Below are positions 5,923 through 46,749 of a stretch of 64,000 bases of DNA, piece after piece. Below the pieces are notes generated by a model, which worked only from the letters and a program-made list of their open reading frames with translations, searched no databases and had not been told where the DNA came from. A program made the position numbers and the translations under genes. The DNA is from an uncultured cyanobacterium (lineage in GTDB: Bacteria > Cyanobacteriota > Cyanobacteriia > PCC-9006 > JAAUQQ01). The stretch's first letter is position 1. Every line of letters starts with the position of its first letter. The stretch covers positions 5,504,001-5,568,000 of the forward strand of contig OY970368.1 in the NCBI GenBank assembly GCA_963718615.1. The letters are read 5' to 3'.

Positions 5923-7017
5923 ATGGCCCCTTTAAATCTGATTCTGGGCAATTTCTTAGACAACATCCTGACCGGTACTGATCAAGATGATTTAATCTTT
6001 GGTCTAAATGGTAACGACACAATCGAAGGAGGGTTGGGTGCTGATATTTTGATAGGTGGCTTTGGCGACGATTTTTTGGAAGGGAATAAAGGCGACGATA
6101 CGATGATCGGCGGGTTTGGCAATGATGTTTTAGATTGGGATGACGGCGACGGCAGCGATATCATGAGCGGTGGCTTTGGTTACGACACCATTGAAGTGGA
6201 TGGCTCCGTTACCCGAGGCGATAACTTTACCCTAGAAGCGAGAGGTCAGCAGGCCATTTTTACCCGTGTGGGTTTGGATGGACAAAAGGGCGTCGGCGTT
6301 TTTAGTTTGACGGTCGATTCTTCAGAGCTTTTCGATGTCAGTGGTGAGGGGGGAAATGACACCTTTTTTGTGGGCAATCTCAACGGAACAGGGGTTCAAA
6401 AGGTCAAGTTTGATGGAGGAGACGGTGACGATTTGTTTGATGGGAGTAACAGCAGCGTTAGCATTGAAGCCATCGGCGGCAGCGGAAATGACCGATTGAT
6501 TGGCAGCCAGTTTGATGACCTGCTAGTGGGGGGAGATGGGGTTGATACGATGACTGGGGGTGGGGGGCGCGATCGCTTTCTCTACACCGGCAATCCTTTT
6601 GCAAACGGCACACCCAACGTCACCCCGAACGGCATTTCTGCCCTCAATCGCCCGGATATTATTACCGACTTTACGCTCAATCATGACCAGTTTGCCCTGG
6701 ATGCCAGCGACCTTGGTATCCACTCGATTCACTTTAGTTCAGGTCTATCTAATCAGCTGGGGGATGGCAATATTTTGGTGCTGACCGATGGCTTTGCCAA
6801 TGCTGCTGCTGCCGCTAAAGCGATCGACAATAACCATAATATTACGGCTGATGAAGGTGTATTTATTTACTTCAATACTAGTCTGGGCATCAGCCGTTTG
6901 GTTTATTCCGAGAACCTGGGCGATGGTGGACCGATTAGCGTTTTGGCCAATCTGACGAACCTGACGAATGTGGGCAATCAGGCAAACTTTGGGGCACAAA
7001 ACTTCACGGTTGTTTAA
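5923..7017 (+). CDS. RTX/hemolysin-type calcium-binding repeat protein
   Basis: Many GGxGxDxLx nonapeptides; D.ITDF C-terminal region; AGGAG RBS. Confidence 0.9.
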   Translation: MAPLNLILGNFLDNILTGTDQDDLIFGLNGNDTIEGGLGADILIGGFGDDFLEGNKGDDTMIGGFGNDVLDWDDGDGSDIMSGGFGYDTIEVDGSVTRGDNFTLEARGQQAIFTRVGLDGQKGVGVFSLTVDSSELFDVSGEGGNDTFFVGNLNGTGVQKVKFDGGDGDDLFDGSNSSVSIEAIGGSGNDRLIGSQFDDLLVGGDGVDTMTGGGGRDRFLYTGNPFANGTPNVTPNGISALNRPDIITDFTLNHDQFALDASDLGIHSIHFSSGLSNQLGDGNILVLTDGFANAAAAAKAIDNNHNITADEGVFIYFNTSLGISRLVYSENLGDGGPISVLANLTNLTNVGNQANFGAQNFTVV

Positions 7018-17329: not shown

Positions 17330-18088
17330 TCATCCGTGGCGAATAAATGCAGGGCCATAGGCTGCCGTTAGGGTATCTGGGTGTAGAACTTCCTCCGGGG
17401 AACCTTGATGAATCAACTGACGATTGAGACAAAGAACACAATCACAGTGGGTTCTGACCATATTTAAGTCATGGGAAATTTGTAAAATCGACCAGCCCTG
17501 TTCTCGTTTGAGTTGACTCAGTAAGGCATAAAACTCTGCTTCCCCTCGTACATCTAAGCCTGCGGGTGCTTCGTCCAGAATCAACAACTGTCGAGGACGA
17601 ATCAAGCAGTAGGCCAGTAATACTCGTTTGATTTCACCTCCTGATAAACTGCTGATAGCTTGGCGATGCAGATGGCTGGCTTCTACCTGGGCTAGCGCAA
17701 GCTGAACCGCATGGGATCGCTCTCGCCATCCCACCCAAGGAAGTTGCCAGCCTAATCGATCCCAGCCCAATCCCACCAGCTCCGCAACGGTCATGGGAAT
17801 CCGTTGATCAATCAAGAAGTTTTGTGGTAGGTAAGCAACATGATGGCGGAGCAAGGTTTCGGTCTTAGGACCCAGGCGTTGCCCCAGCAATGTAACCTGT
17901 CCAGCCTGATAGGGTAATAGCCCTAAAATAGCTTGAATCAGCGTACTTTTGCCTGCACCATTGGGGCCAATAATGGCCATGTCCATACCCGCAGGCAGCG
18001 AAAAAGAAATATCTTGGATAGCGGCTGTCTTTCCTCGATGGACGGTTAGACGTTCTACGGTCAGAATGGGAGGCATTGATGACATCAT
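17330..18088 (-). CDS. znuC: Zn/Mn ABC transporter ATP-binding subunit
   Basis: GPNGAGKST, YLPQ, LSGGE, LILDE, SHDL; follows the substrate-binding gene. Confidence 0.88.
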   Translation of the reverse strand: MMSSMPPILTVERLTVHRGKTAAIQDISFSLPAGMDMAIIGPNGAGKSTLIQAILGLLPYQAGQVTLLGQRLGPKTETLLRHHVAYLPQNFLIDQRIPMTVAELVGLGWDRLGWQLPWVGWRERSHAVQLALAQVEASHLHRQAISSLSGGEIKRVLLAYCLIRPRQLLILDEAPAGLDVRGEAEFYALLSQLKREQGWSILQISHDLNMVRTHCDCVLCLNRQLIHQGSPEEVLHPDTLTAAYGPAFIRHG

Positions 18089-18101
18089 AGGGGGGTTGGC
18101 A

Positions 18102-19148
18102 TCATGAGCCCGCAAAGGCTTGTTGCAGTTGAATAACATTCTCCCGCATGACGGTAAAGTAGGCATCGGGCCTAATACTATCCATCTCTCCCACTTCATT
18201 GGGCTGAAATGTACTGATGTTTACATTCAAATCTTGAGCTAAGGCCTGGAAGGGACCCGCTGTTGCTTGAGATTCAGTTAAGAGGGTTTTGAGCTCAGAT
18301 TTTTTTACGGCTTCCATGACTCGTTTGACATCATTAGGGGCAGGATTCTCTTCGGGAATTCCCACTAAAAATTCGACTTTTAAGCCATAGCGATCGGCAA
18401 AGTAATTGGCAAAGTCGTGATAGGTGACAAAGGTTTTACCTGCAAAGGGAGACAGGGTCTTCTGAATCTCCTGGTGAAGTGCTTCTAACTGTGCGTTATA
18501 GGTAGCAGCATTGGCCGTAAATTGTGCTTCACAAGTGGGCTGAGCTACGATCAAGCCATCGCGAATATTGTTCACTTGATCCATCGCTCGCACCGGATCT
18601 AACCAAATATGGGGATCGAATTCACCATGATCATGGCTCTCTGTTTCTTCGCCGTGATGTTCTGACTCTGTACCGTGATGATCATGCTCGCTCTCTACCA
18701 TGGGAATCAGATCGAGTCCTTCGCTACTATCAATAATCTTCAAGTTTGGATTGCCCGTATTCTCGATCATAGAGTCTAGAAAATGTTCAATTTCTAGGCC
18801 GTTTTGTACCAAGACATCTGCCTGTGACAGGCTTTGAGCATCACTGGGTTTAGCCTGATAATCGTGGGGACCAACATTGGTCGGCAAGAGTTGAGTGACC
18901 TCAGCGCAGTCACCCGCTACCGCTTTAGTGAACTGGGTCATGGGCAAAAATGTCGTTACAACCTTCAGCTTCTGCTCGCTGCTAGGGGCCGCATTATTGG
19001 CTAAGTCTTGAGCAGAGGTTTTGCCTGCGTTTTGGCCTGCGTTCTGGGCTACCTCTGGATTGGATTGGCCGGAGCAAGCACCTAGCACTAGGGCGATCGC
19101 CAGACCTAAAAATCGAACGTGAATGGATTGACCTTTAGCTAAAACCAT
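18102..19148 (-). CDS. znuA: Zn ABC transporter substrate-binding lipoprotein
   Basis: LGAC lipobox, GPHDY, His-rich loop, DPHIWLDP, TYHD. Confidence 0.9.
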   Translation of the reverse strand: MVLAKGQSIHVRFLGLAIALVLGACSGQSNPEVAQNAGQNAGKTSAQDLANNAAPSSEQKLKVVTTFLPMTQFTKAVAGDCAEVTQLLPTNVGPHDYQAKPSDAQSLSQADVLVQNGLEIEHFLDSMIENTGNPNLKIIDSSEGLDLIPMVESEHDHHGTESEHHGEETESHDHGEFDPHIWLDPVRAMDQVNNIRDGLIVAQPTCEAQFTANAATYNAQLEALHQEIQKTLSPFAGKTFVTYHDFANYFADRYGLKVEFLVGIPEENPAPNDVKRVMEAVKKSELKTLLTESQATAGPFQALAQDLNVNISTFQPNEVGEMDSIRPDAYFTVMRENVIQLQQAFAGS

Positions 19149-19156
19149 GGCTAAAA

Positions 19157-20272
<1,116 letters not shown>

Positions 20273-20280
20273 TTATTATA

Positions 20281-20301
20281 TGATAATGAAAATCATTATC
20301 A
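20281..20301. promoter_or_regulatory. Zur/Fur-type operator between hemB and the Fur-family gene
   Basis: TGATAATGA-AAA-TCATTATCA palindrome. Confidence 0.9.
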
Positions 20302-20355
20302 CTCAATTCGTCAAGAGAAAATGCTTCGTTTAGAAATGTTATTGAGAGGAAATCT

Positions 20356-20766
20356 GTGGTGAACCGGAGGTTAACGAGTAGTCAGATGTTGGTATACGAG
20401 GTGTTACAAGACACGTCTCTGGAATTAAGTGCTCAGGCGATTCATGCCGCTTTAGTTCGTCGCGGGCATGCCCGTGGCTTGGCAACGGTTTATCGGGCAT
20501 TGCGAGGGTTGCAATTGCTGGGGTTGGTGCGATCGCATTCCTTGCTCGCAGGAGAACAGGGATTTAGCTTGTGTCACAAAAACTCCCCCTACCTCACCTG
20601 TTTGCAATGCGGACAATCGGTATCTTTAGCAATGAGTCCGATGGAAAACTTTGTCCGACATCTTGCTCAACAAGCGAACTTTCTAGTCTATTACCACACG
20701 CTAGAGCTTATTGGGATCTGTTTGCCTTGTCAAGACAATATTCAAGGGGAACATCATCAAACGTAG
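20356..20766 (+). CDS. Fur-family regulator, divergent Zur paralogue
   Basis: LSAQAIH, GLATVYRAL, LTCLQCG, YYHTLELIGICLPC. Confidence 0.9.
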   Translation: MVNRRLTSSQMLVYEVLQDTSLELSAQAIHAALVRRGHARGLATVYRALRGLQLLGLVRSHSLLAGEQGFSLCHKNSPYLTCLQCGQSVSLAMSPMENFVRHLAQQANFLVYYHTLELIGICLPCQDNIQGEHHQT

Positions 20767-20768
20767 CC

Positions 20769-21404
20769 TTAGAAGTGGCGTTGATTTTGAATCGCTTCAA
20801 GGTCGCAAGTCCCGGTCTCCGCACAGCGATACCCGGCTAAAAGTGCCTTGTTAATCTCGACCACATGGTGGGAAAACTTTTGGTCGTGGGGTTTCGCATT
20901 TGGAAGACGATCGGCCTGTTGCTGATGCACAATGATTGATCCGGATGGAACATACTTTCCAGGCAGAATTTCTACATCCTGGATGAGTGCATGCATCATG
21001 ACGATGCAACCTTGACCGACCTTGGCATTAAAGACTGTGGAACGAAAGCCGATAAAACAATTATCGCCTACGTAGGCTGGTCCGTGAATTAGAGCCATGT
21101 GAGTAATACAGGTATTTCGACCAATCCAGACTGAATACAATTGTTGATCATCTCCAGTGACACGACCTTCCTCGAGGCCATGAATGACGACGCCATCTTG
21201 AATATTGCTGCGATCGCCAATGTGAAAGGGGGTCCCTTCATCCGCTCGAATCGAGCAATGGGGAGCAATCAGTACGCCTTCGCCAATGTGAATATCACCA
21301 ATGAGACTAGAGGCCGGATGAACATAGGCGGATGGGTGAGCTTGGGGACGATCTGTACTTTGGTCCCAGGGGGTTGGTGGTGCAGGTTGATAACGGAGTG
21401 GCAT
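20769..21404 (-). CDS. Stand-alone gamma-carbonic anhydrase domain closely resembling the CcmM N-terminus
   Basis: [65 protein letters not shown]; 211 aa, no RbcS-like repeats. Confidence 0.9.
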
Positions 21405-21477
21405 AGAAATGAAGCTTGCAGATGGATGGTATTTAAGGCACTGAAAACCAAACGTTGAGTTGAATGACCGGGAACCC

Positions 21478-21954
21478 TTAAAGTTGAGTTGGATTAGGTG
21501 CATCGCCATACACCTGTTGCGGATCGAAGGTTTTTTCTAACTCAGTAAAGTGCAGTGTGATCGACTGGGCTACTGCGTCCCCCAGCGGAATTTCACGATA
21601 GAAACAAGAATGATATCCCACATGACAGCTTGCCCCAGTTCCAGCCACATCGACTTTCATCCAGAGGCAATCTTGATCATCGTCAATCAGCAGTTGTCGA
21701 ACATGCTGAATCAGCCCACTGGTCGCCCCCTTATGCCAAAGAACCTGACGACTGCGGCTGTAGTAATGGGCTTCGCGGGTGACGATTGTGCGCCGTAGTG
21801 CTTCGGCATTCATGTATCCCTGCATGAGCACTTCGCCGCTGGAGGCGTTGGTGGTGATCACGGGGATTAATCCTTGGGCATCGAACCTTGGGGCAAGGCT
21901 GGTGCTTTCTTCAACTTGCTGAACGGACTGCCGCTGCGAAAAGGGGAAACTCAT
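21478..21954 (-). CDS. hisI: Phosphoribosyl-AMP cyclohydrolase (monofunctional paralogue)
   Basis: [44 protein letters not shown]. Confidence 0.92.
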
Positions 21955-21989
21955 GGCCAGAAAACGACATAGAATAATGATGGATAGTT

Positions 21990-22004
21990 TGATAATGATT
22001 ATCA
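21990..22004. promoter_or_regulatory. Zur box upstream of hisI
   Basis: Perfect 7-1-7 TGATAAT-G-ATTATCA. Confidence 0.9.
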
Positions 22005-22077
22005 TTTCTATTGTAGGGTACCATGGCGCTCTAACGCCGAGTGGTGCTAAATTGACGCCTAAGCACACCGTTCTAGG

Positions 22078-22986
22078 GTGATTGATGAGTTCCGTTCTGA
22101 AATTGTGAAAACACCAGTTTGTTGCTTTAGCGCTGTTCTGGGCTTTGGTCTGGGTTCTGTTTTCAGCCTGGGAGGTTTGTCGGCGATCGCCTACGAAGTC
22201 ACCCTAAGCCCCAGCAGCCCCCAACTGGGTGACACCCTCAGCGTTGACATTCGAGCCGAGCAGCCCAACTCTACCGAGCCGCCCCAGGTGCAGGTCGGCA
22301 GCAAAACCTATCCCAGCTTTGCTCTTCCCGGTCGTGGTTTACCCCAGTTTCGGGCCTTGATTCCGACGAGCCCTTTAGATAAGCCAAGCCGGTTGGTGGT
22401 ACAAGTCAGTGGTCAGGACAGAACCCGTAATCTGGCGGTGGAGTTGCGGGGGCGATCGTTCCGCACCCAGAGCATTTGGTTGCCCCCCGGAGATGACGAT
22501 TTGGGGACGGATTTTGAGTTCGATCGCGTCGATGCCTTCAAGCAACTGGTGAGCCCAGAACGCCACTGGTCTGGGCCGTTGCTGCGTCCGAGTGCAGGCT
22601 CAATCACGACGGAGTATGGGGTTCAGCGTTATTACAACGGCAAATTTGCGGATGACTACTACCACCGAGGGGTGGATTATGCCGCGCCCACGGGCACGCC
22701 TGTGGTGGCTCCGGCGGCGGGCTACGTGCGTTTGGTGGGGCGCGAGGCCGAGGGCTTTGAAATCCATGGCAATACCATTGGGGTTGACCATGGCCAGGGG
22801 GTGCTGAGTATTATGATTCACCTCAGCCGCATTGATGTGAAGGAGGGGGATTTCGTGACGGCGGGGCAGCGCATTGGGGCGATCGGCAATACGGGGGCTT
22901 CAACCGGGCCTCATCTCCATTGGGGTCTCTATGTCCATGGGGTGGCGGTTGATCCAGTGCCCTGGCGAACCACCGGTGTAGAGTAG
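22078..22986 (+). CDS. M23 family metallopeptidase
   Basis: HRGVDYAAPTGTPV, GNTGASTGPHLHW. Confidence 0.92.
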   Translation: MIDEFRSEIVKTPVCCFSAVLGFGLGSVFSLGGLSAIAYEVTLSPSSPQLGDTLSVDIRAEQPNSTEPPQVQVGSKTYPSFALPGRGLPQFRALIPTSPLDKPSRLVVQVSGQDRTRNLAVELRGRSFRTQSIWLPPGDDDLGTDFEFDRVDAFKQLVSPERHWSGPLLRPSAGSITTEYGVQRYYNGKFADDYYHRGVDYAAPTGTPVVAPAAGYVRLVGREAEGFEIHGNTIGVDHGQGVLSIMIHLSRIDVKEGDFVTAGQRIGAIGNTGASTGPHLHWGLYVHGVAVDPVPWRTTGVE

Positions 22987-23015
22987 TCCATTCTTCGCAG
23001 TACCCAGGTCAAGAC

Positions 23016-23741
23016 TCATTCATCTACTGCTTTGTCGAGGAGCATTATAGAAAGCTTGCATCGCTCCCTGATCGAAGTTTTTTGCGGTGCATACAGGTAG
23101 AAGAAATGACTCTTGGTCTGGGCTAGAAATCCCTCCTGTTGCAGTTGTTTCAATAGTCGAGTTGTTGTCACGCGTGTACTGCCCACAAAGTCTGCAATCA
23201 TTTGGTGCGTGAGACGCAAGTTGATCAGCATTCCGGTTTCTGTGCGTTCACCAAATCGTGAACCTAACCACATGAATAAACGCTCAATTCGCTGCATGAC
23301 TGGACCGTGACGCAAGGTTAGGAGAACTTGAGTCTGTTTAACTTGGTTAAGGGACTGATGTACCCATAGATCCGGGGTGAGGGTGCTGATCGGAACAACC
23401 GTGACCTGGGTAATGCTCTCAACTTCAAGGGCATCCTGGGGAACCAAGGGAAATCCCAGTAAGTCACCTTGGCTCCAGATACCGACGGGGATGAGCGTAC
23501 CGTCTTCGGCGAGAATGCAGGTGAGGATGAAGCCCTGAGTGATTTGCCAAAATCCATGTTGAGGTAGCTGTAATCGTTCTCTACGTTGAAAAGTGATGGT
23601 TTGAGGCTCTCGATTTGGCAGTGCGTACTCTGGGCAATCACCACTCATGTCTCTAACTTTCATCAGTGAGCTTTTCCATCGGGGTAACTCATTTTGTTCC
23701 TGCTGCTGCCAAGAATCACCTAGCCCTAATAAATCATCCAT
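23016..23741 (-). CDS. Crp/Fnr-family transcriptional regulator
   Basis: C-terminal HTH LTHQMIADFVGSTRVTTTRLL; degenerate cNMP-binding region. Confidence 0.85.
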   Translation of the reverse strand: MDDLLGLGDSWQQQEQNELPRWKSSLMKVRDMSGDCPEYALPNREPQTITFQRRERLQLPQHGFWQITQGFILTCILAEDGTLIPVGIWSQGDLLGFPLVPQDALEVESITQVTVVPISTLTPDLWVHQSLNQVKQTQVLLTLRHGPVMQRIERLFMWLGSRFGERTETGMLINLRLTHQMIADFVGSTRVTTTRLLKQLQQEGFLAQTKSHFFYLYAPQKTSIRERCKLSIMLLDKAVDE

Positions 23742-23751
23742 AAAATGGTGC

Positions 23752-24027
23752 CTAGGAATCGTTTAGATTCTCATTGTTCTGAAAAGCTTTGATTAAATCG
23801 ACTGGCTCGATCTCAGCCACAGCTTTATGAACCTTAAACTGCCTAACGGGATCTGTCATGACTGTAATTGCCGTTTCAATGGGAGGACAGTGAGGTTCAT
23901 GGCACTGTAATTGGCTAATTGAGATCACGATTTCTTCCTCAACATGGAGAAGTTCAAAGAGCCAACTTTTCAGTTGTTCGACTTGAGCGGGTTCGGCTTT
24001 GAGCGGTTGAGATGAAAAGAGATTCAT
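23752..24027 (-). CDS. Small conserved protein with CxEPxCPPxET motif
   Basis: QLQCHEPHCPPIETAI..FKVHK. Confidence 0.8.
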   Translation of the reverse strand: MNLFSSQPLKAEPAQVEQLKSWLFELLHVEEEIVISISQLQCHEPHCPPIETAITVMTDPVRQFKVHKAVAEIEPVDLIKAFQNNENLNDS

Positions 24028-24150
24028 GGTTACGATAGGTTTTGGATAAGCTGAAATAGATTGCTTCAGACCTTGATAAGACTGAGTTCATGAGACTGAG
24101 TTCAACCAACTGGAACTCAAGACATTGAGAAATAGTGAGGATGGAAAGCT

Positions 24151-26007
24151 TTAGATGAGAGATTTTTGGGCGATCGCCTCCTGCATTTTGTCGATGAGCA
24201 CTTGAAGCTTTAAGCAGCCTAAATCTCCCCCCATTCGGGTCCGAACACTGAGGGTTTCGCTCTCTACCTCTCGTTTGCCAATTACCGCAATCACAGGGAT
24301 TTTTTCAAGTTCTGCGGTTCGAATCATTTTGCCGAGGCGATCGCCACTCTGATCCACCTCTGCCCGAAATCCTTGTTTTTTTAACTGCTGAACCCATTGA
24401 TCTGCATAGTCCCGCTGTTTATCACTCACGGGCAATAGCCTGACTTGTACCGGAGCCAACCACAGCGGAAAAAGGCCCGCATAGTTCTCAATTAAAATGC
24501 CAAAGAATCGCTCTAGGGAACCGAAGATGGCGCGGTGAATCATGATGGGTCGTTTCCGTGAACCGTCCGCTGCGACATATTCCATGTCAAACCGTTCTGG
24601 CAAGTTGAAATCCACCTGAATGGTAGAACATTGCCACAGACGACCAATGGCATCGCGAATTTTGATGTCAATCTTGGGACCATAGAAAGCCCCGCCCCCT
24701 TCATCCGTGAGGTAGGGCCACCCCTTGGTTTCTAATGCTTCGATCAACGCAGCGGTGGCCAATTGCCAAATCTCATCCCCACCGACGGATTTCTCTGGTC
24801 GAGTTGAAAGATTGACTTCATAATCCTGGAAGCCAAAGTCTGAGAGGATTTTTTCCGTGAGGTCTAGAACGCCTAAAATTTCAACGGCGACCTGATCGGG
24901 TAAACAGAAAATATGCGCATCATCCTGAGTAAATCCGCGAACGCGCATCAACCCGTGGAGCGTGCCAGATCGCTCGTAGCGATAGACTGTGCCGAGTTCT
25001 GCCCAACGCAGGGGAAACTCCCGATAGGAATGGAGATCATGCTGGTAGGTCAACACATGAAAGGGGCAATTCATGGGTTTGAGCTGATAGGCTTGCTCCT
25101 CCACATCAATGGCATCAAACATGCCATCTCGATAGAAATCAAAATGGCCCGAGGTTTTCCAAAGCTCTAGGTTGGCCAGATGGGGGGTGAACAATAGCTC
25201 ATAGCCTGCCTCCGTATGAGCCTGCCGCCAATAGTCTTCGATCACACGGCGAATTCTTGCGCCCTTAGGGTGCCAAAACACCAAGCCGCCCCCCGCTTGC
25301 TCTTCAATGCTGAAGAGCTTTAGTTCTTGGCCCAACTTGCGATGATCCCGCCGTTTAGCCTCCTCTTTTTGTTGGAGATAGCTTTGGAGCTGTTCTGGAG
25401 TTTCCCAAGCGGTGCCATACACCCGCTGTAACTGTGCCTTGGTTTCGTCACCTCGCCAATAGGCTCCGGCCACACTTTCCAAGGCAAAGGCCTGGGGATT
25501 GATCTGCCCCGTCCGGGTCAAATGGGGGCCAGCACAGAGATCCCACCAGCAGGGGTGGGGGGGAATGACGACTGGGTGAATCAGAGACGGTTCGACTTCC
25601 GGGTGATTGGTCCAACCGCTGTCAGGGCAGCCGATGAAATAGCGACTAATGACGGCCTCCTCTGGGAGACTATCAAGAATTTCGAGCTTGTAGGGTTCGT
25701 TGAGTTGCTCAATTTCCGCCTTAATGGCTGTGCGATCAACAGTTTCTTGAATGATGGGCAGATCCGCTTTGATGATTTGCCGCATTTCCAGCTCAATCTG
25801 CTCTAGATCCTCTGGGGTGAAGGGAGTGGGGCAATCAAAATCGTAGTAGAAGCCAGTCTCCGTCCAGGGGCCAAGGGTCACCTTCGCCTCCGGAAAGAGT
25901 CGCTGCACGGCCATGGCGAGAACATGGGAGCAGGTGTGGCGAATCCGCTGGAGCTGGTCAGCGACCTCAGGAAGAGGTGAGAGTTGAACAAAAGCAGGAT
26001 GGGACAT
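24151..26007 (-). CDS. thrS: Threonyl-tRNA synthetase (probably the Zur-regulated second copy)
   Basis: RHTCSHVLA, DLCAGPH, RDHRKLG, KPMNCPFH, RVRGFTQDDAH, FYGPKID, HRAIFGSLERF. Confidence 0.97.
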   Translation of the reverse strand: MSHPAFVQLSPLPEVADQLQRIRHTCSHVLAMAVQRLFPEAKVTLGPWTETGFYYDFDCPTPFTPEDLEQIELEMRQIIKADLPIIQETVDRTAIKAEIEQLNEPYKLEILDSLPEEAVISRYFIGCPDSGWTNHPEVEPSLIHPVVIPPHPCWWDLCAGPHLTRTGQINPQAFALESVAGAYWRGDETKAQLQRVYGTAWETPEQLQSYLQQKEEAKRRDHRKLGQELKLFSIEEQAGGGLVFWHPKGARIRRVIEDYWRQAHTEAGYELLFTPHLANLELWKTSGHFDFYRDGMFDAIDVEEQAYQLKPMNCPFHVLTYQHDLHSYREFPLRWAELGTVYRYERSGTLHGLMRVRGFTQDDAHIFCLPDQVAVEILGVLDLTEKILSDFGFQDYEVNLSTRPEKSVGGDEIWQLATAALIEALETKGWPYLTDEGGGAFYGPKIDIKIRDAIGRLWQCSTIQVDFNLPERFDMEYVAADGSRKRPIMIHRAIFGSLERFFGILIENYAGLFPLWLAPVQVRLLPVSDKQRDYADQWVQQLKKQGFRAEVDQSGDRLGKMIRTAELEKIPVIAVIGKREVESETLSVRTRMGGDLGCLKLQVLIDKMQEAIAQKSLI

Positions 26008-26073
26008 CGACGTCTGAGAGAATCCCTACGAGAGCAATGCACTTGGAATACACCCTTGCGATCATAACATTTT

Positions 26074-26088
26074 TGATAATGATTATCA
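26074..26088. promoter_or_regulatory. Zur box upstream of thrS
   Basis: Perfect TGATAAT-G-ATTATCA. Confidence 0.9.
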
Positions 26089-26398
26089 TTCTTGTTGATG
26101 GAAAGCCATCAATTGGGTTGGCTTTGGCGGCTTCAAGGTGAGAGGATGTTTGAGAATAGCTGAGGCTGTGGCCATTTTCGCCATTACTCCCTGGCTTGCA
26201 CCGAAGCATCAGGCCATTCTGAGCTAGCCAAGGTATCAATTCCTGCAACTTGGCGCATTCTTAAACATCCTCTGAAAGATGTCACCCAACTATCCTCCCT
26301 CAGGGGATCTCTTATCCCCCCTAGGGGTATTGTTGTGTGTCAACCTTAGCATTTAGGGTTAGGGGAAGATTGCAAACATTTTTTGGGAGTCTTGTCTC

Positions 26399-26998
26399 AT
26401 GGCCTACGAATTACCGGCATTGCCCTATGACTACAATGCCCTAGATCCATACATTTCAAAAAGCACTTTAGAATTTCACCATGACAAGCACCATGCTGCC
26501 TATGTGAGTAAATTTAATCAGGCCATCCAGGGAACGGATTGGGATCAAATGCCCATTGAAAAAGTGATTCAGGCGATCGCAGGGGATGCCGATAAGACTG
26601 CCATTTTTAACAACGCGGCCCAAGCCTGGAACCATACCTTCTATTGGAACAGTATGAAACCAGGGGGAGGAGGGATGCCCAGCGGAGAATTAATGAAGAA
26701 AATTGAAGCTGATTTTGGGGGCTTTGAGTCATTTGCAGAAGCCTTTAAAAATGCAGGAGCTACACAATTTGGCAGTGGTTGGGCTTGGTTGGTGCTAGAA
26801 GGTCGCACCCTCAAGGTCACAAAAACCCTCAATGCAGATAATCCCCTCACCCAAGGACAAGTCCCTCTGCTCACGATGGATGTTTGGGAACATGCCTATT
26901 ATTTGGATTATCAAAATAAGCGCCCCGACTACATTGAAACGTTCTTGGGAAATCTCGTGAACTGGGAATTTGCAGCTCAAAATTTAGCTGCGGCCTAA
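26399..26998 (+). CDS. sodB: Fe-superoxide dismutase
   Basis: HHDKHH, FNNAAQAWNH (Fe-type AAQ), FGSGWAWL, DVWEHAYY. Confidence 0.95.
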   Translation: MAYELPALPYDYNALDPYISKSTLEFHHDKHHAAYVSKFNQAIQGTDWDQMPIEKVIQAIAGDADKTAIFNNAAQAWNHTFYWNSMKPGGGGMPSGELMKKIEADFGGFESFAEAFKNAGATQFGSGWAWLVLEGRTLKVTKTLNADNPLTQGQVPLLTMDVWEHAYYLDYQNKRPDYIETFLGNLVNWEFAAQNLAAA

Positions 26999-27126
26999 GC
27001 TTTTGTGCGGTTTCAGAGTCTTGACCCGATGTATGGGTGCAGGACACTGCTTGAACTGGAAAACTGACGATCCGATGGCTCTGTCCAAGCGGTAGAGCCT
27101 GATTCTTCATCCCCGTTGAGCCCACC

Positions 27127-27345
27127 ATGATTTTGAATCCTGACTTTCCTCATATTGTCTGGTCATTTCCCTATCGCGGCTGGCGATTGGAGGTAGATCG
27201 GAGCGAAAATGATGGGCAAGTTGTATATGCTGTTTGGGCTAATCATGAGGGAGGGACGGCGATCGCAGTGCCCTGTGCTTTGACCCGTGAAGAGGCCATC
27301 AAGCGCGCCAAGCACTATGTCGATTCCCGAATCAGCGCTGATTAG
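27127..27345 (+). CDS. Small hypothetical protein (72 aa)
   Basis: Fills the gap between sodB and the WD40 gene; protein-like composition (YRGWRLEV...EEAIKRAKHYVD). Confidence 0.65.
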   Translation: MILNPDFPHIVWSFPYRGWRLEVDRSENDGQVVYAVWANHEGGTAIAVPCALTREEAIKRAKHYVDSRISAD

Positions 27346-28418
27346 AACATTCGCCAAATCAACCATTCCCCCGCCTGCCCTCCAGCCACCAAAAACTGCC
27401 CTGAAGGATGCCACGCGACGGTAGAAAATCCCTGCATCGTGGCCTCAATTATTTGGCTTAAAATATGGCCCTTGCGCCAAAGCCCCAGAGAGCCATCCGC
27501 CGAGGCCGTGGCGAGTAACAAACTTTGGGGATGAAAGGCGATCGCCTCCACCCGTTCTGTATGCAACTCCAGTAATCGTGCCTCCCAGCCAATCGCATCA
27601 TCCTCGGATTTTTGCCACAGGACAATATCTTGGCTACTGGCACTCGCCAATAATGGAGCCTGACCCGACAGCACTGGGCTCCAGACGAGCTGCCTCACCT
27701 TCCCCGGAAAGCCCCCCATGCGCCAAGGATTCTCACTGTTGCCCTGTTGCCAGACCCAGAGCGTCCGGTCGAGATTGCCTGAGGCTAAGTATTGACCTTC
27801 TGGTGAGCAGGCGATCGCCAGCCCCGCAGAGGGCATCTCTAAAATCTGCGGTTCCCGGTCCCAATCGCCAGCCTTCCAAATTTTGACGCCCTGCTGTCCA
27901 CTGACGGCGAGCCAGTGCCCCGCCGGGTGCCATTGCAGATCTAATACTGACGACTGCTCAAAATCCACCGTCATCACGACAGCCTGGTCGATCGCATCCC
28001 AAACCTGAACATAATGACCCAAACTGAACGCCAGCTCAGGCTTGCAAGGATTCCAGGCTAGGCGATCGACCCAGACCCGTGGATGTTCAAGTTGGGTGAG
28101 CAGCGTCGGCCCCTCTTTGGAATCAGCTTGGATTGGCATCGACCACAGATACAGACATCCCTCCTGACCCCCGGCTGCCAGAAATCGGCCATCGGCGGAA
28201 AATTCTAAGGTATCGATGGAAGATCCCTGCGGTTCCGTCAATGGATGCAGAGACAATTCTTCCCCTAGCCAATGGCCCCAAACCACCTCACCCGCCGCAG
28301 AAGCAAGGGCAATGACTTGGCCCGTGGGAGACCAGGCGATCGCCGTGATGTAGTCCTGTAAATGGCCCTGGCTATGGGGGGTTACCAGGGTTTGCAGGGG
28401 TGCTCTTACTGTATACAT
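27342..28418 (-). CDS. WD40 repeat protein
   Basis: Repeated WSP.G/FSADG/WHP.G..LA.G..D...W units; overlaps the COG0523 stop. Confidence 0.9.
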   Translation of the reverse strand: MYTVRAPLQTLVTPHSQGHLQDYITAIAWSPTGQVIALASAAGEVVWGHWLGEELSLHPLTEPQGSSIDTLEFSADGRFLAAGGQEGCLYLWSMPIQADSKEGPTLLTQLEHPRVWVDRLAWNPCKPELAFSLGHYVQVWDAIDQAVVMTVDFEQSSVLDLQWHPAGHWLAVSGQQGVKIWKAGDWDREPQILEMPSAGLAIACSPEGQYLASGNLDRTLWVWQQGNSENPWRMGGFPGKVRQLVWSPVLSGQAPLLASASSQDIVLWQKSEDDAIGWEARLLELHTERVEAIAFHPQSLLLATASADGSLGLWRKGHILSQIIEATMQGFSTVAWHPSGQFLVAGGQAGEWLIWRMF

Positions 28419-29380
28419 GCGCAGAAGTCCCGCCGAAGTTGTTCTCCATCTAAGTCACGACCGATAAACACCAATTCATTCTTGCGCGTTTCGTTAGACT
28501 TCCAGGGGCGATCGGGTTGTCCATCGAAGAGCATATGTACCCCTTGAAACACAAAGCGTTGATCCTCTCCGGCAATATTCAAAATGCCCTTCATCCGAAA
28601 GATGTTTGTGCCTTGGGTTTGTAGCAAATGGCTCAGCCAATCATTCAACTTCACGCCATCCAATTCTCCTGCTTCCACGATAGCTACAGACCCCACCGAA
28701 TCATCATGCTCATGGGCATGTTCTTCCTCTAAAAACTCAGGCTCAATTTCCAAGGCTCGGTTGAGATCAAAGGCTTTGACTCCTAAGATTGCATCCATTT
28801 CAACCGCAGCATCCTGGGTCCGATAAATCTTGGCCATGGCATTCATGGCACGAATTCGCTGCTCTAGGGCAATTAAATCTGCCTCTTCCACGAGATCCGT
28901 TTTATTCAGCAAGATTACATCGGCAAAGGCTAATTGTTCCTGGGCTTCATCGGCTTCCCAATGCTGATGGATATGTTTGGCATCTACTACGGTGACCACA
29001 GCATCCAAGGCGAGTTGGCCTCGCATATCCTCATCAACAAAGAAGGTCTGAATGACAGGAGCTGGGTCTGCCAAGCCGGTCGTCTCAATGACCAGATGAT
29101 CAAACTTGTTTCGACGCTTCATTAAGTTGCCAATAATGCGAATCAAATCCCCTCGCACCGTACAGCAAATACAGCCATTGTTCATTTCAAAGATTTCTTC
29201 ATCGGCATCAATGACCAACTGGTTATCAATGCCGACCTCGCCAAACTCATTGACGATCACCGCAATCTTTTGACCATGCTCATGGGTGAGAATGCGGTTG
29301 AGCAGCGTTGTCTTGCCTGCTCCCAGATAGCCCGTGAGAACCGTGACGGGCACAACGCTTTCTTCGTATGCAATGCTCAT
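28406..29380 (-). CDS. COG0523/CobW family G3E GTPase
   Basis: TGYLGAGKTT, NEFGE, GCICCT, ETTGLADP, NKTD, CobW_C (RMKG, FQGVH, LVFIG). Confidence 0.95.
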   Translation of the reverse strand: MSIAYEESVVPVTVLTGYLGAGKTTLLNRILTHEHGQKIAVIVNEFGEVGIDNQLVIDADEEIFEMNNGCICCTVRGDLIRIIGNLMKRRNKFDHLVIETTGLADPAPVIQTFFVDEDMRGQLALDAVVTVVDAKHIHQHWEADEAQEQLAFADVILLNKTDLVEEADLIALEQRIRAMNAMAKIYRTQDAAVEMDAILGVKAFDLNRALEIEPEFLEEEHAHEHDDSVGSVAIVEAGELDGVKLNDWLSHLLQTQGTNIFRMKGILNIAGEDQRFVFQGVHMLFDGQPDRPWKSNETRKNELVFIGRDLDGEQLRRDFCACIQ

Positions 29381-29393
29381 AGCCGCCCTGGAT

Positions 29394-29408
29394 TGAAAAT
29401 GATTATCG
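29394..29408. promoter_or_regulatory. Zur box upstream of COG0523-WD40
   Basis: TGAAAAT-G-ATTATCG (2 mismatches to the 7-1-7 palindrome). Confidence 0.75.
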
Positions 29409-29494
29409 ATATCAAATAATATAGAGCAGGTTAGGGCTGAGGGCTACAAAGAATCATTACGGGGAATCATGGCAGACCCCTAGAGAGAATGGGT

Positions 29495-30559
<1,065 letters not shown>

Positions 30560-30589
30560 AGAGATCCAGAAATGAAAAGGAGAGAAGAA

Positions 30590-31597
30590 TTAGAAATGGC
30601 TAATACAGTTGTTGAGTCGTTGCTGAAGCTCCAATCTATTCAACTGTTTGCCAATAAAAACAAGTTGATTGATAGGTTCACGTTTGAGAGAAATCACATC
30701 GAGGCTAAATCGTTTTCCACTGAGCTGAAAAACGTAGTGGGGCTCTTGCCCTGCAAACCACAGAATTCCCTTAGCTCGATAAACAGTTTCTGGTAGATAA
30801 TCCGTCAGAAACAACTGAAACCGCTGTACGTCCAAGGGATACTGACTCGTGAAGGAGAACGACACAAAGCCGTCTTGATTCAAATGATTGGCGGAAGCCA
30901 AAGCGGGCGAAGGCGAACCCGTGGAGAGATCTTGCGGATCAAGGAGCTCCACCTCAGATCCTCCTAACCCTAGAATGACCGGCAATGGAACCTTTCCCCG
31001 TTCACAGCGAATAATCCTTGCCCCTTCTCGATAGTTATGGCATTGTTGCTCAATGCCTTCTAGCCTTTGTGTATCAACTAAGTCAACCTTGTTGAGCAAT
31101 AAAATATCGCCGTAGGTCAACTGACTCAGGGCAGCTTGACTGTTAAACAGATCAAGGGAGAAGTTTTCTGCATCAATGACCGTCAGAATACTATCAAGAT
31201 GCGTCAAGTCCCTCAGCTCCGATGATAGGAGGGTCAAGGCAATGGGAAGAGGATCCGCAAGACCCGTGGTTTCGATGACCATGTAGTCTACGCGATCGCT
31301 CCGCTCCATTACACTATAGATGGTGTCAACTAAGCTATCATTAATTGTGCAACAAATGCACCCATTGCTCAACTCCATCATATCTTCTTCTAAGGCAACC
31401 AAGAGTTGAGAGTCAATATTAATATCGCCAAATTCATTCACAAGAACGGCTACTTTTAGCGCTTGTCGATTATTCAAAATATGATTGACTAGGGTCGTTT
31501 TTCCACTGCCGAGAAACCCTGTAATAATCGTGATGGGAAGGCCGCATTTGGCTAGATTTAGTTCTAAATCTTGAGCGGCTTTAGTGGCTTGGAACAT
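30590..31597 (-). CDS. COG0523/CobW GTPase without His-rich insert
   Basis: TGFLGSGKTT, GCICCT, ETTGLADP, YRAKGILW. Confidence 0.95.
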   Translation of the reverse strand: MFQATKAAQDLELNLAKCGLPITIITGFLGSGKTTLVNHILNNRQALKVAVLVNEFGDINIDSQLLVALEEDMMELSNGCICCTINDSLVDTIYSVMERSDRVDYMVIETTGLADPLPIALTLLSSELRDLTHLDSILTVIDAENFSLDLFNSQAALSQLTYGDILLLNKVDLVDTQRLEGIEQQCHNYREGARIIRCERGKVPLPVILGLGGSEVELLDPQDLSTGSPSPALASANHLNQDGFVSFSFTSQYPLDVQRFQLFLTDYLPETVYRAKGILWFAGQEPHYVFQLSGKRFSLDVISLKREPINQLVFIGKQLNRLELQQRLNNCISHF

Positions 31598-31658
31598 AGG
31601 ATTTTATGAGATAGTTTTCTCTGTTTTTATGATTTCCAGAAAAATCAAAATCTGTTGG

Positions 31659-32486
31659 CTATAGGGGCAAAATGTGAAGATTTGGAATTGCGATCGCCCC
31701 CAAAAACAGCGCCAGCTGAACGACGACGATACTGGGGCCAGAGGGTAGATTGAAGAGGGCAGAAAGCAGAATGCCGGCGATCGCGCTACTCCCACCTAGC
31801 AGGGATGAAAGCAATACATACTGACTAAACTGACGACTCACTAACCTTGCAGTACAAGCGGGAATCACAACAAAGGCACTGACTAGCAAAACACCGACTG
31901 ATTTAATCGCAACTGCAACCATCAAAGACAACAAAATGACAAAAGCAAGGCGATGTGCATAGACAGAAATTCCTCGAGCCTTCGCTAAAGATTCATTAAG
32001 CGTTAGCAGCATTTGAGTTCGGAGAGTCAGACCTAAAAACGTCAAGCAAACCAGTAAAATGACAATGCTAAAGATTAGATCTATTGGTCGAATCGATAGA
32101 ATGTCACCAAATAATAATTGATTGAATCCTCCTTTATATTGACCCACAAAGCTAAGTGTAATCACAGCTAGAGCCAAGGATGACGAGTAAACAATATTGA
32201 GCAGTGCATCTGTCCAAAGCTTGGTTTTTTCTAGCAAATAGGTGACACCAATGGCAAAGATAACGGAAAAAGGAATGAGAACTAAATTGGGGTTTAGTCC
32301 TAGCAAAATTCCAAGGCTGATGCCCAGCAAGGCAGAATGTCCCAGGGCATCGCTAAAAAATGAAAGCTGCCGCAAAATTGTAAAACTGCCGAGCATACCG
32401 CCTGTGGTGCCGAGCAAAAGACCGCCCAGCAGAGCACGCTGCATAAAAGGAAGCTGGAGTAATTCGGAAAAATGAGATCCATCCAT
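31659..32486 (-). CDS. znuB: Zn/Mn ABC transporter permease
   Basis: FMQRAL, DALGHSALLG, LFGDILS, GVLLVSAFVVIPA, PSGPSIV. Confidence 0.9.
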   Translation of the reverse strand: MDGSHFSELLQLPFMQRALLGGLLLGTTGGMLGSFTILRQLSFFSDALGHSALLGISLGILLGLNPNLVLIPFSVIFAIGVTYLLEKTKLWTDALLNIVYSSSLALAVITLSFVGQYKGGFNQLLFGDILSIRPIDLIFSIVILLVCLTFLGLTLRTQMLLTLNESLAKARGISVYAHRLAFVILLSLMVAVAIKSVGVLLVSAFVVIPACTARLVSRQFSQYVLLSSLLGGSSAIAGILLSALFNLPSGPSIVVVQLALFLGAIAIPNLHILPL

Positions 32487-32512
32487 AGCCGTTCCCGTCC
32501 TCACTCATCTGA

Positions 32513-32533
32513 TGATAATGAAAATCATTATCA
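32513..32533. promoter_or_regulatory. Zur/Fur-type operator upstream of znuB
   Basis: TGATAATGAAAATCATTATCA, identical to 20281-20301. Confidence 0.9.
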
Positions 32534-46734: not shown

Positions 46735-46749
46735 TGATAATCGTTATCA
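46735..46749. promoter_or_regulatory. Zur box between divergent genes
   Basis: TGATAAT-C-GTTATCA, preceded by an extra TAATAA hexamer. Confidence 0.85.

Follow-up and report, generated by a model that had tools for sequence, protein, structure and literature searches.

A satellite CcmM carbonic anhydrase domain without its Rubisco-binding tail, encoded behind a Zur-type box in a cyanobacterial zinc island

We analysed a 64-kb window of DNA from an uncultured cyanobacterium (64,000 nucleotides of contig OY970368.1, assembly GCA_963718615.1), with a focus on ccmM2, a gene for a stand-alone gamma-carbonic anhydrase (gamma-CA) domain of the CcmM type that lies downstream of a second hisI gene and a Zur-type box. 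Positions refer to the whole window and residue numbers to the window protein; L numbers denote loci or their proteins and G numbers genomes, G000 being the present one. The ccmM2 gene occupies 20769..21404 on the minus strand. The mechanically called open reading frame (ORF) is longer (20769..21509, minus strand), and its internal ATG at 21404 yields a protein of 211 aa. This ATG is the start common to relatives, with an offset of 0 in L101 and in 26 of the 27 rows of the clade that we label SAT1 (SAT1 and SAT2 are labels coined in this analysis for two clades of short CcmM paralogues); L034 starts 6 residues further in than the other SAT1 relatives.

Residues 1-205 of ccmM2 match positions 1-205 of the 320 in the NCBIfam CcmM model NF053794 (E 3.9e-113, 378 bits), and the top solved structure is 3kwc (E 8.1e-92, residues 5-206). 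The score falls below the 550-bit whole-protein cut-off of the model because the part corresponding to the RbcS-like, small-subunit-like domain (SSLD) is left unmatched; the canonical CcmM of the host scores 745 bits. Pfam recovered hexapeptide repeats only, and the same scan gave no match to PF00101 (RbcS-like). The ten-residue signature is complete (R53, D55, E56, Q69, H75, E78, H102, H107, C194 and C200) and comprises the metal-binding histidines H75, H102 and H107 as well as the R/D/E/Q residues that correspond to the catalytic set of Cam. The protein ends 11 residues past Cys200. The Cys194/Cys200 pair is reportedly needed for activity in CcmM and is said to form only in an oxidising compartment, the reduced form being inactive. 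From these residues, ccmM2 is predicted to be a catalytically competent, redox-activated gamma-CA.

No RbcS-like remnant, which the initial annotation of this DNA had named beforehand as evidence against itself, follows the ccmM2 stop: a tblastn search with 22 SSLD tails returned a best E of 0.039 in 18000-21000, and no match at E<=1e-3 across the whole window. The stop lies 2 nt from that of a convergent Fur-family gene, and the predicted RNA fold at this junction is unremarkable (z 0.24). With no SSLD, a position off the ccm locus and a score under the cut-off, ccmM2 lies outside CcmM proper.

The 6.1-Mb genome contains one other CcmM-type match, of 551 aa, with 63-68% identity to ccmM2 over the domain. 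It belongs to the main locus, ccmK-ccmL-ccmM-ccmN-ccmO beside rbcL, at 4.866-4.871 Mb and about 655 kb from ccmM2, which is not encoded between ccmL and ccmN. The model match, the signature and the place of this main locus bear out the description, first given from the sequence alone, of a stand-alone CcmM-type gamma-CA domain with intact catalytic and disulfide signatures, away from the ccm locus; the motifs quoted in that description for the metal histidines and the C-terminal cysteine pair are present in the translation. The signature of the canonical CcmM of the host reads RDEQHAHHGC, with the three histidines kept and Cys194 replaced by Gly. We additionally identified three beta-CAs, one of which (L082, 264 aa) is of the CcaA type, matching 5swc, which we take to be Synechocystis CcaA, over residues 1-211 (E 8.9e-96). 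PF08332, a family of candidate iota-CAs, has no match in this genome.

The gene directly upstream of ccmM2, hisI2 (21478..21957, minus strand), encodes a second, monofunctional phosphoribosyl-AMP cyclohydrolase (PF01502, E 3.5e-29) of 159 aa from the ATG at 21957, its relatives being 158-161 aa long; the other copy in the genome is a bifunctional hisIE at 3.73 Mb. The end of hisI2 at 21478 leaves a spacer of 73 nt before ccmM2 (21405..21477, minus strand, from the ORF coordinates), the distance stated in the initial annotation, and a consensus scan recognised neither a terminator-like nor a strong promoter-like site within it. The same scan over 20200-22150 gave no terminator and no hisI2 promoter; a TACAAT is visible by eye just upstream of the hisI2 box, where the scan gave no promoter. 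The hisI2 box itself, TGATAATCATTATCA, is a perfect 7-1-7 palindrome at 21990..22004, 33 nt upstream of the hisI2 ATG. It is identical to the Zur site of Anabaena alr3242, as given in S3 Table of PMC10957091, and the same paper describes a near-identical site at all3515, TGATAATCATTATCG, as bound by Zur in an electrophoretic mobility shift assay.

In an alignment of the hisI2 product of the window with L042, L044, L047, L060 and L085, the hisI2 paralogues show DDDQDC...SCH.....C where the housekeeping HisIE has DCDSDA...CH.....C. The paralogues have Asp in place of the Cys of the DCD motif and gain a Cys four residues on, a change that may reflect a re-built metal site.

Eight boxes with up to two mismatches were found in the window, against 0.21 expected from shuffled sequences, and all five boxes with no more than one mismatch in the 6.1-Mb genome fall within these 64 kb. 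Four of the five precede znuA/hemB2/zur, hisI2-ccmM2, thrS2 and znuB/COG0523, and the fifth lies in an unassigned intergenic gap at 46735..46749. The thrS2 box (26074..26088, 66 nt upstream of the gene) is a second perfect copy of TGATAATCATTATCA. A 21-bp double box, TGATAATGAAAATCATTATCA, lies at 20281..20301 between hemB2 and the Fur-family gene, where it overlaps a minus-strand promoter-like site that matches at 10 of 12 positions, and an identical copy stands at 32513..32533 before the string of znuB and two COG0523 genes. A weaker box with two mismatches was found at 29394..29408.

The Fur-family gene convergent on ccmM2 (20356..20766, plus strand, PF01475) is one of five in the genome. 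The best solved relatives of its product are 7ne9, 2o03 (annotated as 'probable Zinc uptake regulation protein FurB') and 3mwm, and a homologue stands directly before hisI2-ccmM2 in another locus, L060. From this context the gene is probably zur, and hisI2-ccmM2 would then be repressed by Zur in zinc-replete cells. The remaining genes of this part of the window comprise hemB2, znuA and znuC (17330..20251, minus strand; ALAD, ZnuA and ABC_tran matches), thrS2, a second threonyl-tRNA synthetase gene (24151..26007, minus strand; TIGR00418, 706 bits), and three COG0523 (CobW-type) genes with znuB (ABC-3) at 28406..32533 on the minus strand, as assigned by Pfam. Both hemB2 and thrS2 are second copies, the others lying at 0.25 Mb and 3.68 Mb, respectively.

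Together, positions 17330-32533 form a compact zinc-starvation island of znuC-znuA-hemB2, zur, hisI2-ccmM2, thrS2, three COG0523 genes, a WD40 gene and znuB. No island-like anomaly was seen in base composition. The thrS2 box stands in a 391-nt gap common to thrS2 and a divergent gene for an Fe/Mn superoxide dismutase (26399-26998, plus strand), and sodA is listed in the review PMC6103462 among the genes raised in an Anabaena zur mutant.

We investigated the evolutionary distribution of ccmM2 through its relatives. A search limited to proteins of 116-370 aa found 955, of which 120 were listed. The best is a protein of 214 aa with 90% identity; most of the 120 are of about 300-330 aa and combine a gamma-CA domain with one PF00101 domain, at 66-76% identity among the matches listed. 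These listed satellite relatives are nearer to ccmM2 than is the host's own CcmM, and their sources include Acaryochloris marina, Nodosilinea, Leptolyngbya spp., Rubidibacter lacunae and Phormidium willei. Duplicates of this kind, with one SSLD, have been described before as 'satellite' ccmM, in 8 of 227 genomes (Sommer et al. 2017, crediting Long et al. 2011; PMC5853843), and the portion of that article that we consulted makes no link between them and zinc, Zur or hisI.

Within 401 cyanobacterial genomes of at least 90% completeness, 347 of which gave a CcmM-type match, satellites of SAT1 or SAT2 were found in about 38. SAT1 is present in 26 sampled genomes, including this one, with one further case cut by a contig end and one possible fragment, and its members share their N-terminus with the window protein. 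SAT2, in 11 genomes with one degenerate copy (L092, L093, L095-L098, L100, L106-L108 and L114), encodes proteins of about 315 aa that consist of a gamma-CA domain and one SSLD and begin MDIH.IPAPPTPW.QQLVEP. The full ten-residue signature is kept in all 26 evaluable SAT1 proteins and in 10 of 11 SAT2 proteins. Five residues of the domain are diagnostic for SAT1 (D14, P30, C99, A170 and S178), none of them a ligand and only P30 common to SAT2.

SAT1, with the window protein inside it, formed one clan of 27 rows, with SH-aLRT support of 97 in a tree of 58 rows, 99 in a tree of 140 rows (from which 6 partial or very long-branch rows were left out) and 99 in a third tree; SAT2 formed one clan with support of 100 in two trees. 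The phylogeny against full-length CcmM proposed in the initial annotation accordingly places ccmM2 in the SAT1 clan, apart from canonical CcmM. SAT1 and SAT2 are not sisters in FastTree, and an approximately unbiased (AU) test does not reject a single clade (p 0.70), the constrained one-clade tree scoring 14.4 log-likelihood units above the free quick search. By its position in these trees, ccmM2 is a derivative of the published satellite CcmM and not a new kind of gene. The satellite branches are short and cross genome families, with near-identical sequences shared between f29 and f34, between f1 and f34, and intermixed among f9, f11, f22 and f4; the canonical CcmM proteins of those same genomes lie far apart. 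This hints at horizontal spread of the satellite or of the zinc island.

We identified a consistent linkage of the satellites to zinc genes. For SAT1 we compared 20 other loci, each with some 5 kb of flank to either side, using ORFs from a simple script, BLAST clustering and Pfam names. In the window and in 17 of the 20 other loci, hisI2 immediately precedes the satellite on its strand, and a box with no more than two mismatches lies directly upstream of the satellite's gene string in 16 of 19 evaluable SAT1 loci; the three without a box are L051, L052 and L059, and L045 is cut by a contig end. Other SAT1 neighbours include genes for COG0523, thrS2, folE, FeoB-like and Pyr_redox_3 proteins, crp, and znuA/znuC/hemB2/zur. 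Of the genes found beside satellites, COG0523, thrS2, folE, znuA/C and hemB2 are classic genes of zinc sparing. For SAT2 the box begins 21-27 nt before the ATG of the satellite itself in all 11 genes, 8 of which are followed by a COG0523-hisI2 pair in convergent orientation.

Taking both clades together, 28 of the 39 satellite loci carry a box no more than 1.5 kb away; among 107 canonical ccmM loci of the same size, 380,657 nt in all, only 3 do, each with two mismatches. The Fisher p of 7e-18 overstates the difference because related genomes are not independent. The initial annotation's proposal of a Zur-boxed operon with a second hisI is thus upheld by the perfect TGATAATCATTATCA box and by a box and hisI2 linkage kept across many cyanobacteria. 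A literature search to which most subscription journals and RegPrecise were out of reach found no published link of CcmM, satellite or otherwise, to Zur or zinc. New here are the two satellite clades, the Zur-type boxes at most satellite loci, and the usual linkage to hisI2, COG0523, thrS2 and folE.

Some loci showed further elaborations of the gene string. In L061 (G003), a box heads one co-directional run of thrS2, a small ORF, crp, hisI2 and ccmM2. In L044, thrS2 and hisI2 flank an ORF with PF08332 (CaMKII_AD/SnoaL-type, a candidate iota-CA; 6176-6745, minus strand) within a single string headed by a box, and a homologue grouped with it by BLAST clustering only is found in L049 (6186-6764, minus strand).

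The SSLD is absent from 8 of 28 SAT1 proteins (L001, L005, L006, L013, L014, L018, L019 and L021), a count in which L101 is cut by a contig end, L035 (281 aa) is left aside, and the broken L033 stands outside the 28. The SSLD-less proteins include the subclade of the window, with members in G000, G003 and, from another family, G223 and G255, and a gene of 188 aa in G001, at 81-90% identity; the G003 gene reaches a contig end, and a database protein of 214 aa with the same C-terminal residues exists. Elsewhere in the tree, all three genomes of genus g136 encode a protein of 213 aa, and the sister genus g144 keeps the 310-aa form. The SSLD was evidently lost at least twice, because SSLD-less SAT1 genes sit in two places in the tree.

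The ratio of nonsynonymous to synonymous substitution (dN/dS) among the SSLD-less genes is 0.04-0.11, with dS saturated for one pair, and that of ccmM2 against orthologues with estimable dS is 0.04-0.08, the dS estimate having failed for L001-L005. The length of 211 aa recurs in three genomes, no SSLD remnants were found in the five SSLD-less loci examined, and Cys194/Cys200 are kept in seven of the eight SSLD-less proteins, the 188-aa L006 having an altered C-terminus without C194. These values indicate that the truncated gene is functional and under strong purifying selection, and that the truncated form is maintained in other genomes, as the initial annotation would have it; the low dN/dS rules out a decaying pseudogene. 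Decay was observed in other satellites: L033/L056 (G251) carries an in-frame TAA, with a hisI2 fragment still behind the box, and L114 (G195, 227 aa) has lost the cysteine pair.

Finally, we compared the canonical CcmM domain and CcaA across genomes with and without a satellite. The second group comprised 60 genomes, the first one or two listed per family, chosen before their sequences were seen, of which 59 were evaluable, and a CcaA-type match was defined as at least 50% identity to L082. A full signature is seen in the canonical CcmM of 8 of 35 satellite-bearing genomes and in that of 39 of 59 without a satellite. CcaA-type genes were found in 37 of 40 satellite-bearing genomes, being missing from G182 (94% complete), G108 (99%) and G114 (90%), and in 40 of 60 genomes without a satellite. 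In this second sample, an incomplete canonical signature was accompanied by a CcaA-type gene in 20 of 20 cases (one of them with an in-frame stop), and a genome without CcaA had a complete canonical signature, again in 20 of 20. CcmM is regarded as the active CA where CcaA is absent, and the agreement of our pattern with that view supports the scoring of the signature. Judged by these signatures, satellites are enriched in, and not confined to, genomes that, like this one, have CcaA and an inactive-looking canonical domain.

The degenerate canonical domains of satellite-bearing genomes (L062-L081 and L088-L117) have lost the cysteine pair in most cases. Gln takes the place of a metal-binding His in L066, L073, L080 and L081, as Glu does in the partial L103, and H107 has given way to Asn in L067 and L072 and to Phe in L081.

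Several known systems resemble this locus in part. Like the published satellite CcmM (PMC5853843, consulted in part), ccmM2 is a gamma-CA paralogue off the main carboxysome locus; it nests in the satellite clade and shares its N-terminus, but it has no SSLD, and the satellites of our sample are more frequent than the published 8 of 227 genomes (about 38 of 401) and mostly Zur-boxed. With the gamma-CA domain of Thermosynechococcus CcmM (CcmM209; 3kwc, 3kwd and 3kwe) it shares the same three histidines and the cysteines at 194 and 200. However, ccmM2 is a gene product in its own right, whereas that domain is the N-terminal part of a scaffold that carries 3-5 SSLDs, and the ccmM2 gene lies off the ccm locus, behind a Zur box. 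An active construct of the Thermosynechococcus protein reportedly spans 209 residues, and ends about where the natural 211-aa ccmM2 ends.

The gene neighbourhood recalls the Zur-regulated Cam of beta- and gamma-proteobacteria (Haas et al. 2009, PMC2770081), a gamma-CA that, in the part of that paper we consulted, stands beside COG0523 and paralogues of HisI, HemB, ThrRS and FolE and is proposed to cover for zinc-dependent CAs. The occurrence of gamma-CAs in proteobacterial Zur regulons, to which the initial annotation had appealed, is a precedent for the reading of ccmM2 that we prefer. Cam is YrdA-like and cytosolic, whereas ccmM2 is of carboxysomal CcmM descent, has the redox cysteine pair, and has relatives with a Rubisco-binding SSLD. 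The Zur regulon of Anabaena sp. PCC 7120 (Napolitano et al. 2012, through PMC6103462; sites from PMC10957091) has the same 15-bp box and the genes znuABC, hemB2, thrS2, folE2 and COG0523; in contrast, it includes no CcmM-type or hisI gene in those parts of PMC6103462 that summarise it.

We hold with moderate confidence, on comparative grounds, that ccmM2 is a Zur-derepressed, redox-activated gamma-CA supplying carboxysomal CA activity under zinc limitation. The gene would be co-transcribed with hisI2 from a promoter covered by the Zur box, silent in zinc sufficiency and switched on when Zur loses its zinc. The CcaA-type beta-CA would be the normal, zinc-dependent carboxysomal enzyme in a host whose own CcmM is without the first Cys of the activating disulfide. 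At low zinc, ccmM2 would supply CA activity in the oxidising lumen of the carboxysome, where the disulfide can form, and so cover for CcaA. Entry without an SSLD would probably be through the gamma-CA domain, in mixed trimers with the N-domain of CcmM or by binding to CcmN, and this encapsulation of an SSLD-less protein is the weakest link of the mechanism. A carboxysomal role is supported by most members of the clade keeping the SSLD and by the SSLD-less forms keeping the cysteine pair.

A bolder version of this proposal, which we regard as tentative and rather doubtful, is that the carboxysome CA is switched by zinc supply in roughly a tenth of beta-cyanobacteria. The Zur-released satellite gamma-CA would replace CcaA in genomes whose own CcmM domain has often decayed to a scaffold, and the tail-less forms would join the trimer of the CcmM N-domain (or of CcmN), reviving a dead scaffold trimer, perhaps with Fe(II) or Co(II) as the metal.

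Several observations weigh against the reading of ccmM2 as a zinc-regulated carboxysomal backup. The evidence for zinc regulation consists of the box and the comparative linkage. At 73 nt, the spacer exceeds every other hisI2-ccmM2 junction measured, those of 15 other SAT1 loci with both genes intact ranging from -4 to 37 nt, and a separate ccmM2 promoter is possible because of that length. A plain substitution of the satellite for a dead domain does not fit the eight of 35 satellite-bearing genomes whose canonical CcmM is fully competent. G182 (L040, L059, L081) and G108 (L015, L043, L079) combine a degenerate canonical domain with the lack of any CcaA-type match, and their satellites may be the main or only carboxysomal CA and not a backup; the G182 satellite (L059) is without either a box or hisI2. 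The ccmM2 protein has neither an SSLD nor a known encapsulation signal, and its carboxysomal location is presumed.

The metal of ccmM2 also bears on this reading. Its ligands are those of canonical CcmM, and the sequence gives no sign of zinc independence. Gamma-CAs as a class are able to use Fe(II) or Co(II), according to those parts of PMC11672702 and PMC2770081 that we consulted. Any zinc sparing would rest on this class-level property, because neither the ligands nor the clade-diagnostic residues point to another metal. The use of Fe or Co suggested for this protein in the initial annotation found no support in the sequence, where the first-shell ligands do not differ from those of canonical, active CcmM; a non-zinc metal in ccmM2 would be speculative.

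We considered three other explanations. It is unlikely, although it has several points in its favour, that ccmM2 acts outside the carboxysome as a general cytosolic, zinc-sparing CA standing in for the non-carboxysomal beta-CAs: it has neither an SSLD nor a remnant of one, two further beta-CAs besides the CcaA-type enzyme would also need zinc, the SSLD was lost twice, as though Rubisco tethering were dispensable, and in proteobacteria the gamma-CAs under Zur control serve as housekeeping substitutes in the cytosol (PMC2770081). Yet seven of the eight SSLD-less proteins keep C194/C200, and the closest relatives of ccmM2 keep the SSLD. The reduced form is reportedly inactive and should not work in the cytosol, and an active cytosolic CA reportedly short-circuits the bicarbonate pool of cyanobacteria.

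We consider it quite improbable that ccmM2 is instead the main, constitutively needed carboxysomal gamma-CA, with a box that is weak or regulates hisI2 only. Such a role would suit a host CcmM without Cys194, the scarcity of full canonical signatures where a satellite is present (8/35, against 39/59 where it is not), a spacer that could hold a promoter of its own, and G182, with a box-less satellite, a dead canonical domain and no CcaA match. It sits poorly with the CcaA-type beta-CA in this genome and in 37 of 40 satellite-bearing genomes, and with the pairing of an incompetent CcmM with CcaA in 20 of 20 genomes without a satellite, from which CcaA is expected to be the main enzyme. Furthermore, the spacer contains no promoter-like site, and the SAT2 box stands at the gene's own start in 11 of 11 cases. 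That ccmM2 is a non-catalytic remnant or scaffold piece, left by a rearrangement that placed the Fur-family gene at its 3' end, is barely credible. The protein is shorter than its relatives of about 310 aa, the convergent gene ends 2 nt away, and decayed satellites do occur (L033/L056, L114 and L006), but the dN/dS of 0.04-0.08, the 211-aa form in three genomes, the ten intact signature residues and the parallel truncation to 213 aa in another genus all count against it.

The cyanobacterial mechanism for concentrating CO2 cannot do without a carboxysomal CA, and many waters are poor in zinc. The natural tail-less forms offer a clean test of whether the gamma-CA domain of CcmM alone suffices for encapsulation, a question that matters for carboxysome engineering in plants, and the comparative pattern of an intact satellite, an often degenerate canonical domain and CcaA would be cheap to test in culturable satellite-bearing strains. 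The value of the finding lies less in the single gene than in the widespread pattern that joins a zinc-starvation regulon to a carboxysome CA. If our preferred reading of ccmM2 is true, it would constitute a direct molecular link from zinc supply to carbon fixation, and the first case of metal-dependent remodelling of the cargo of a bacterial microcompartment.

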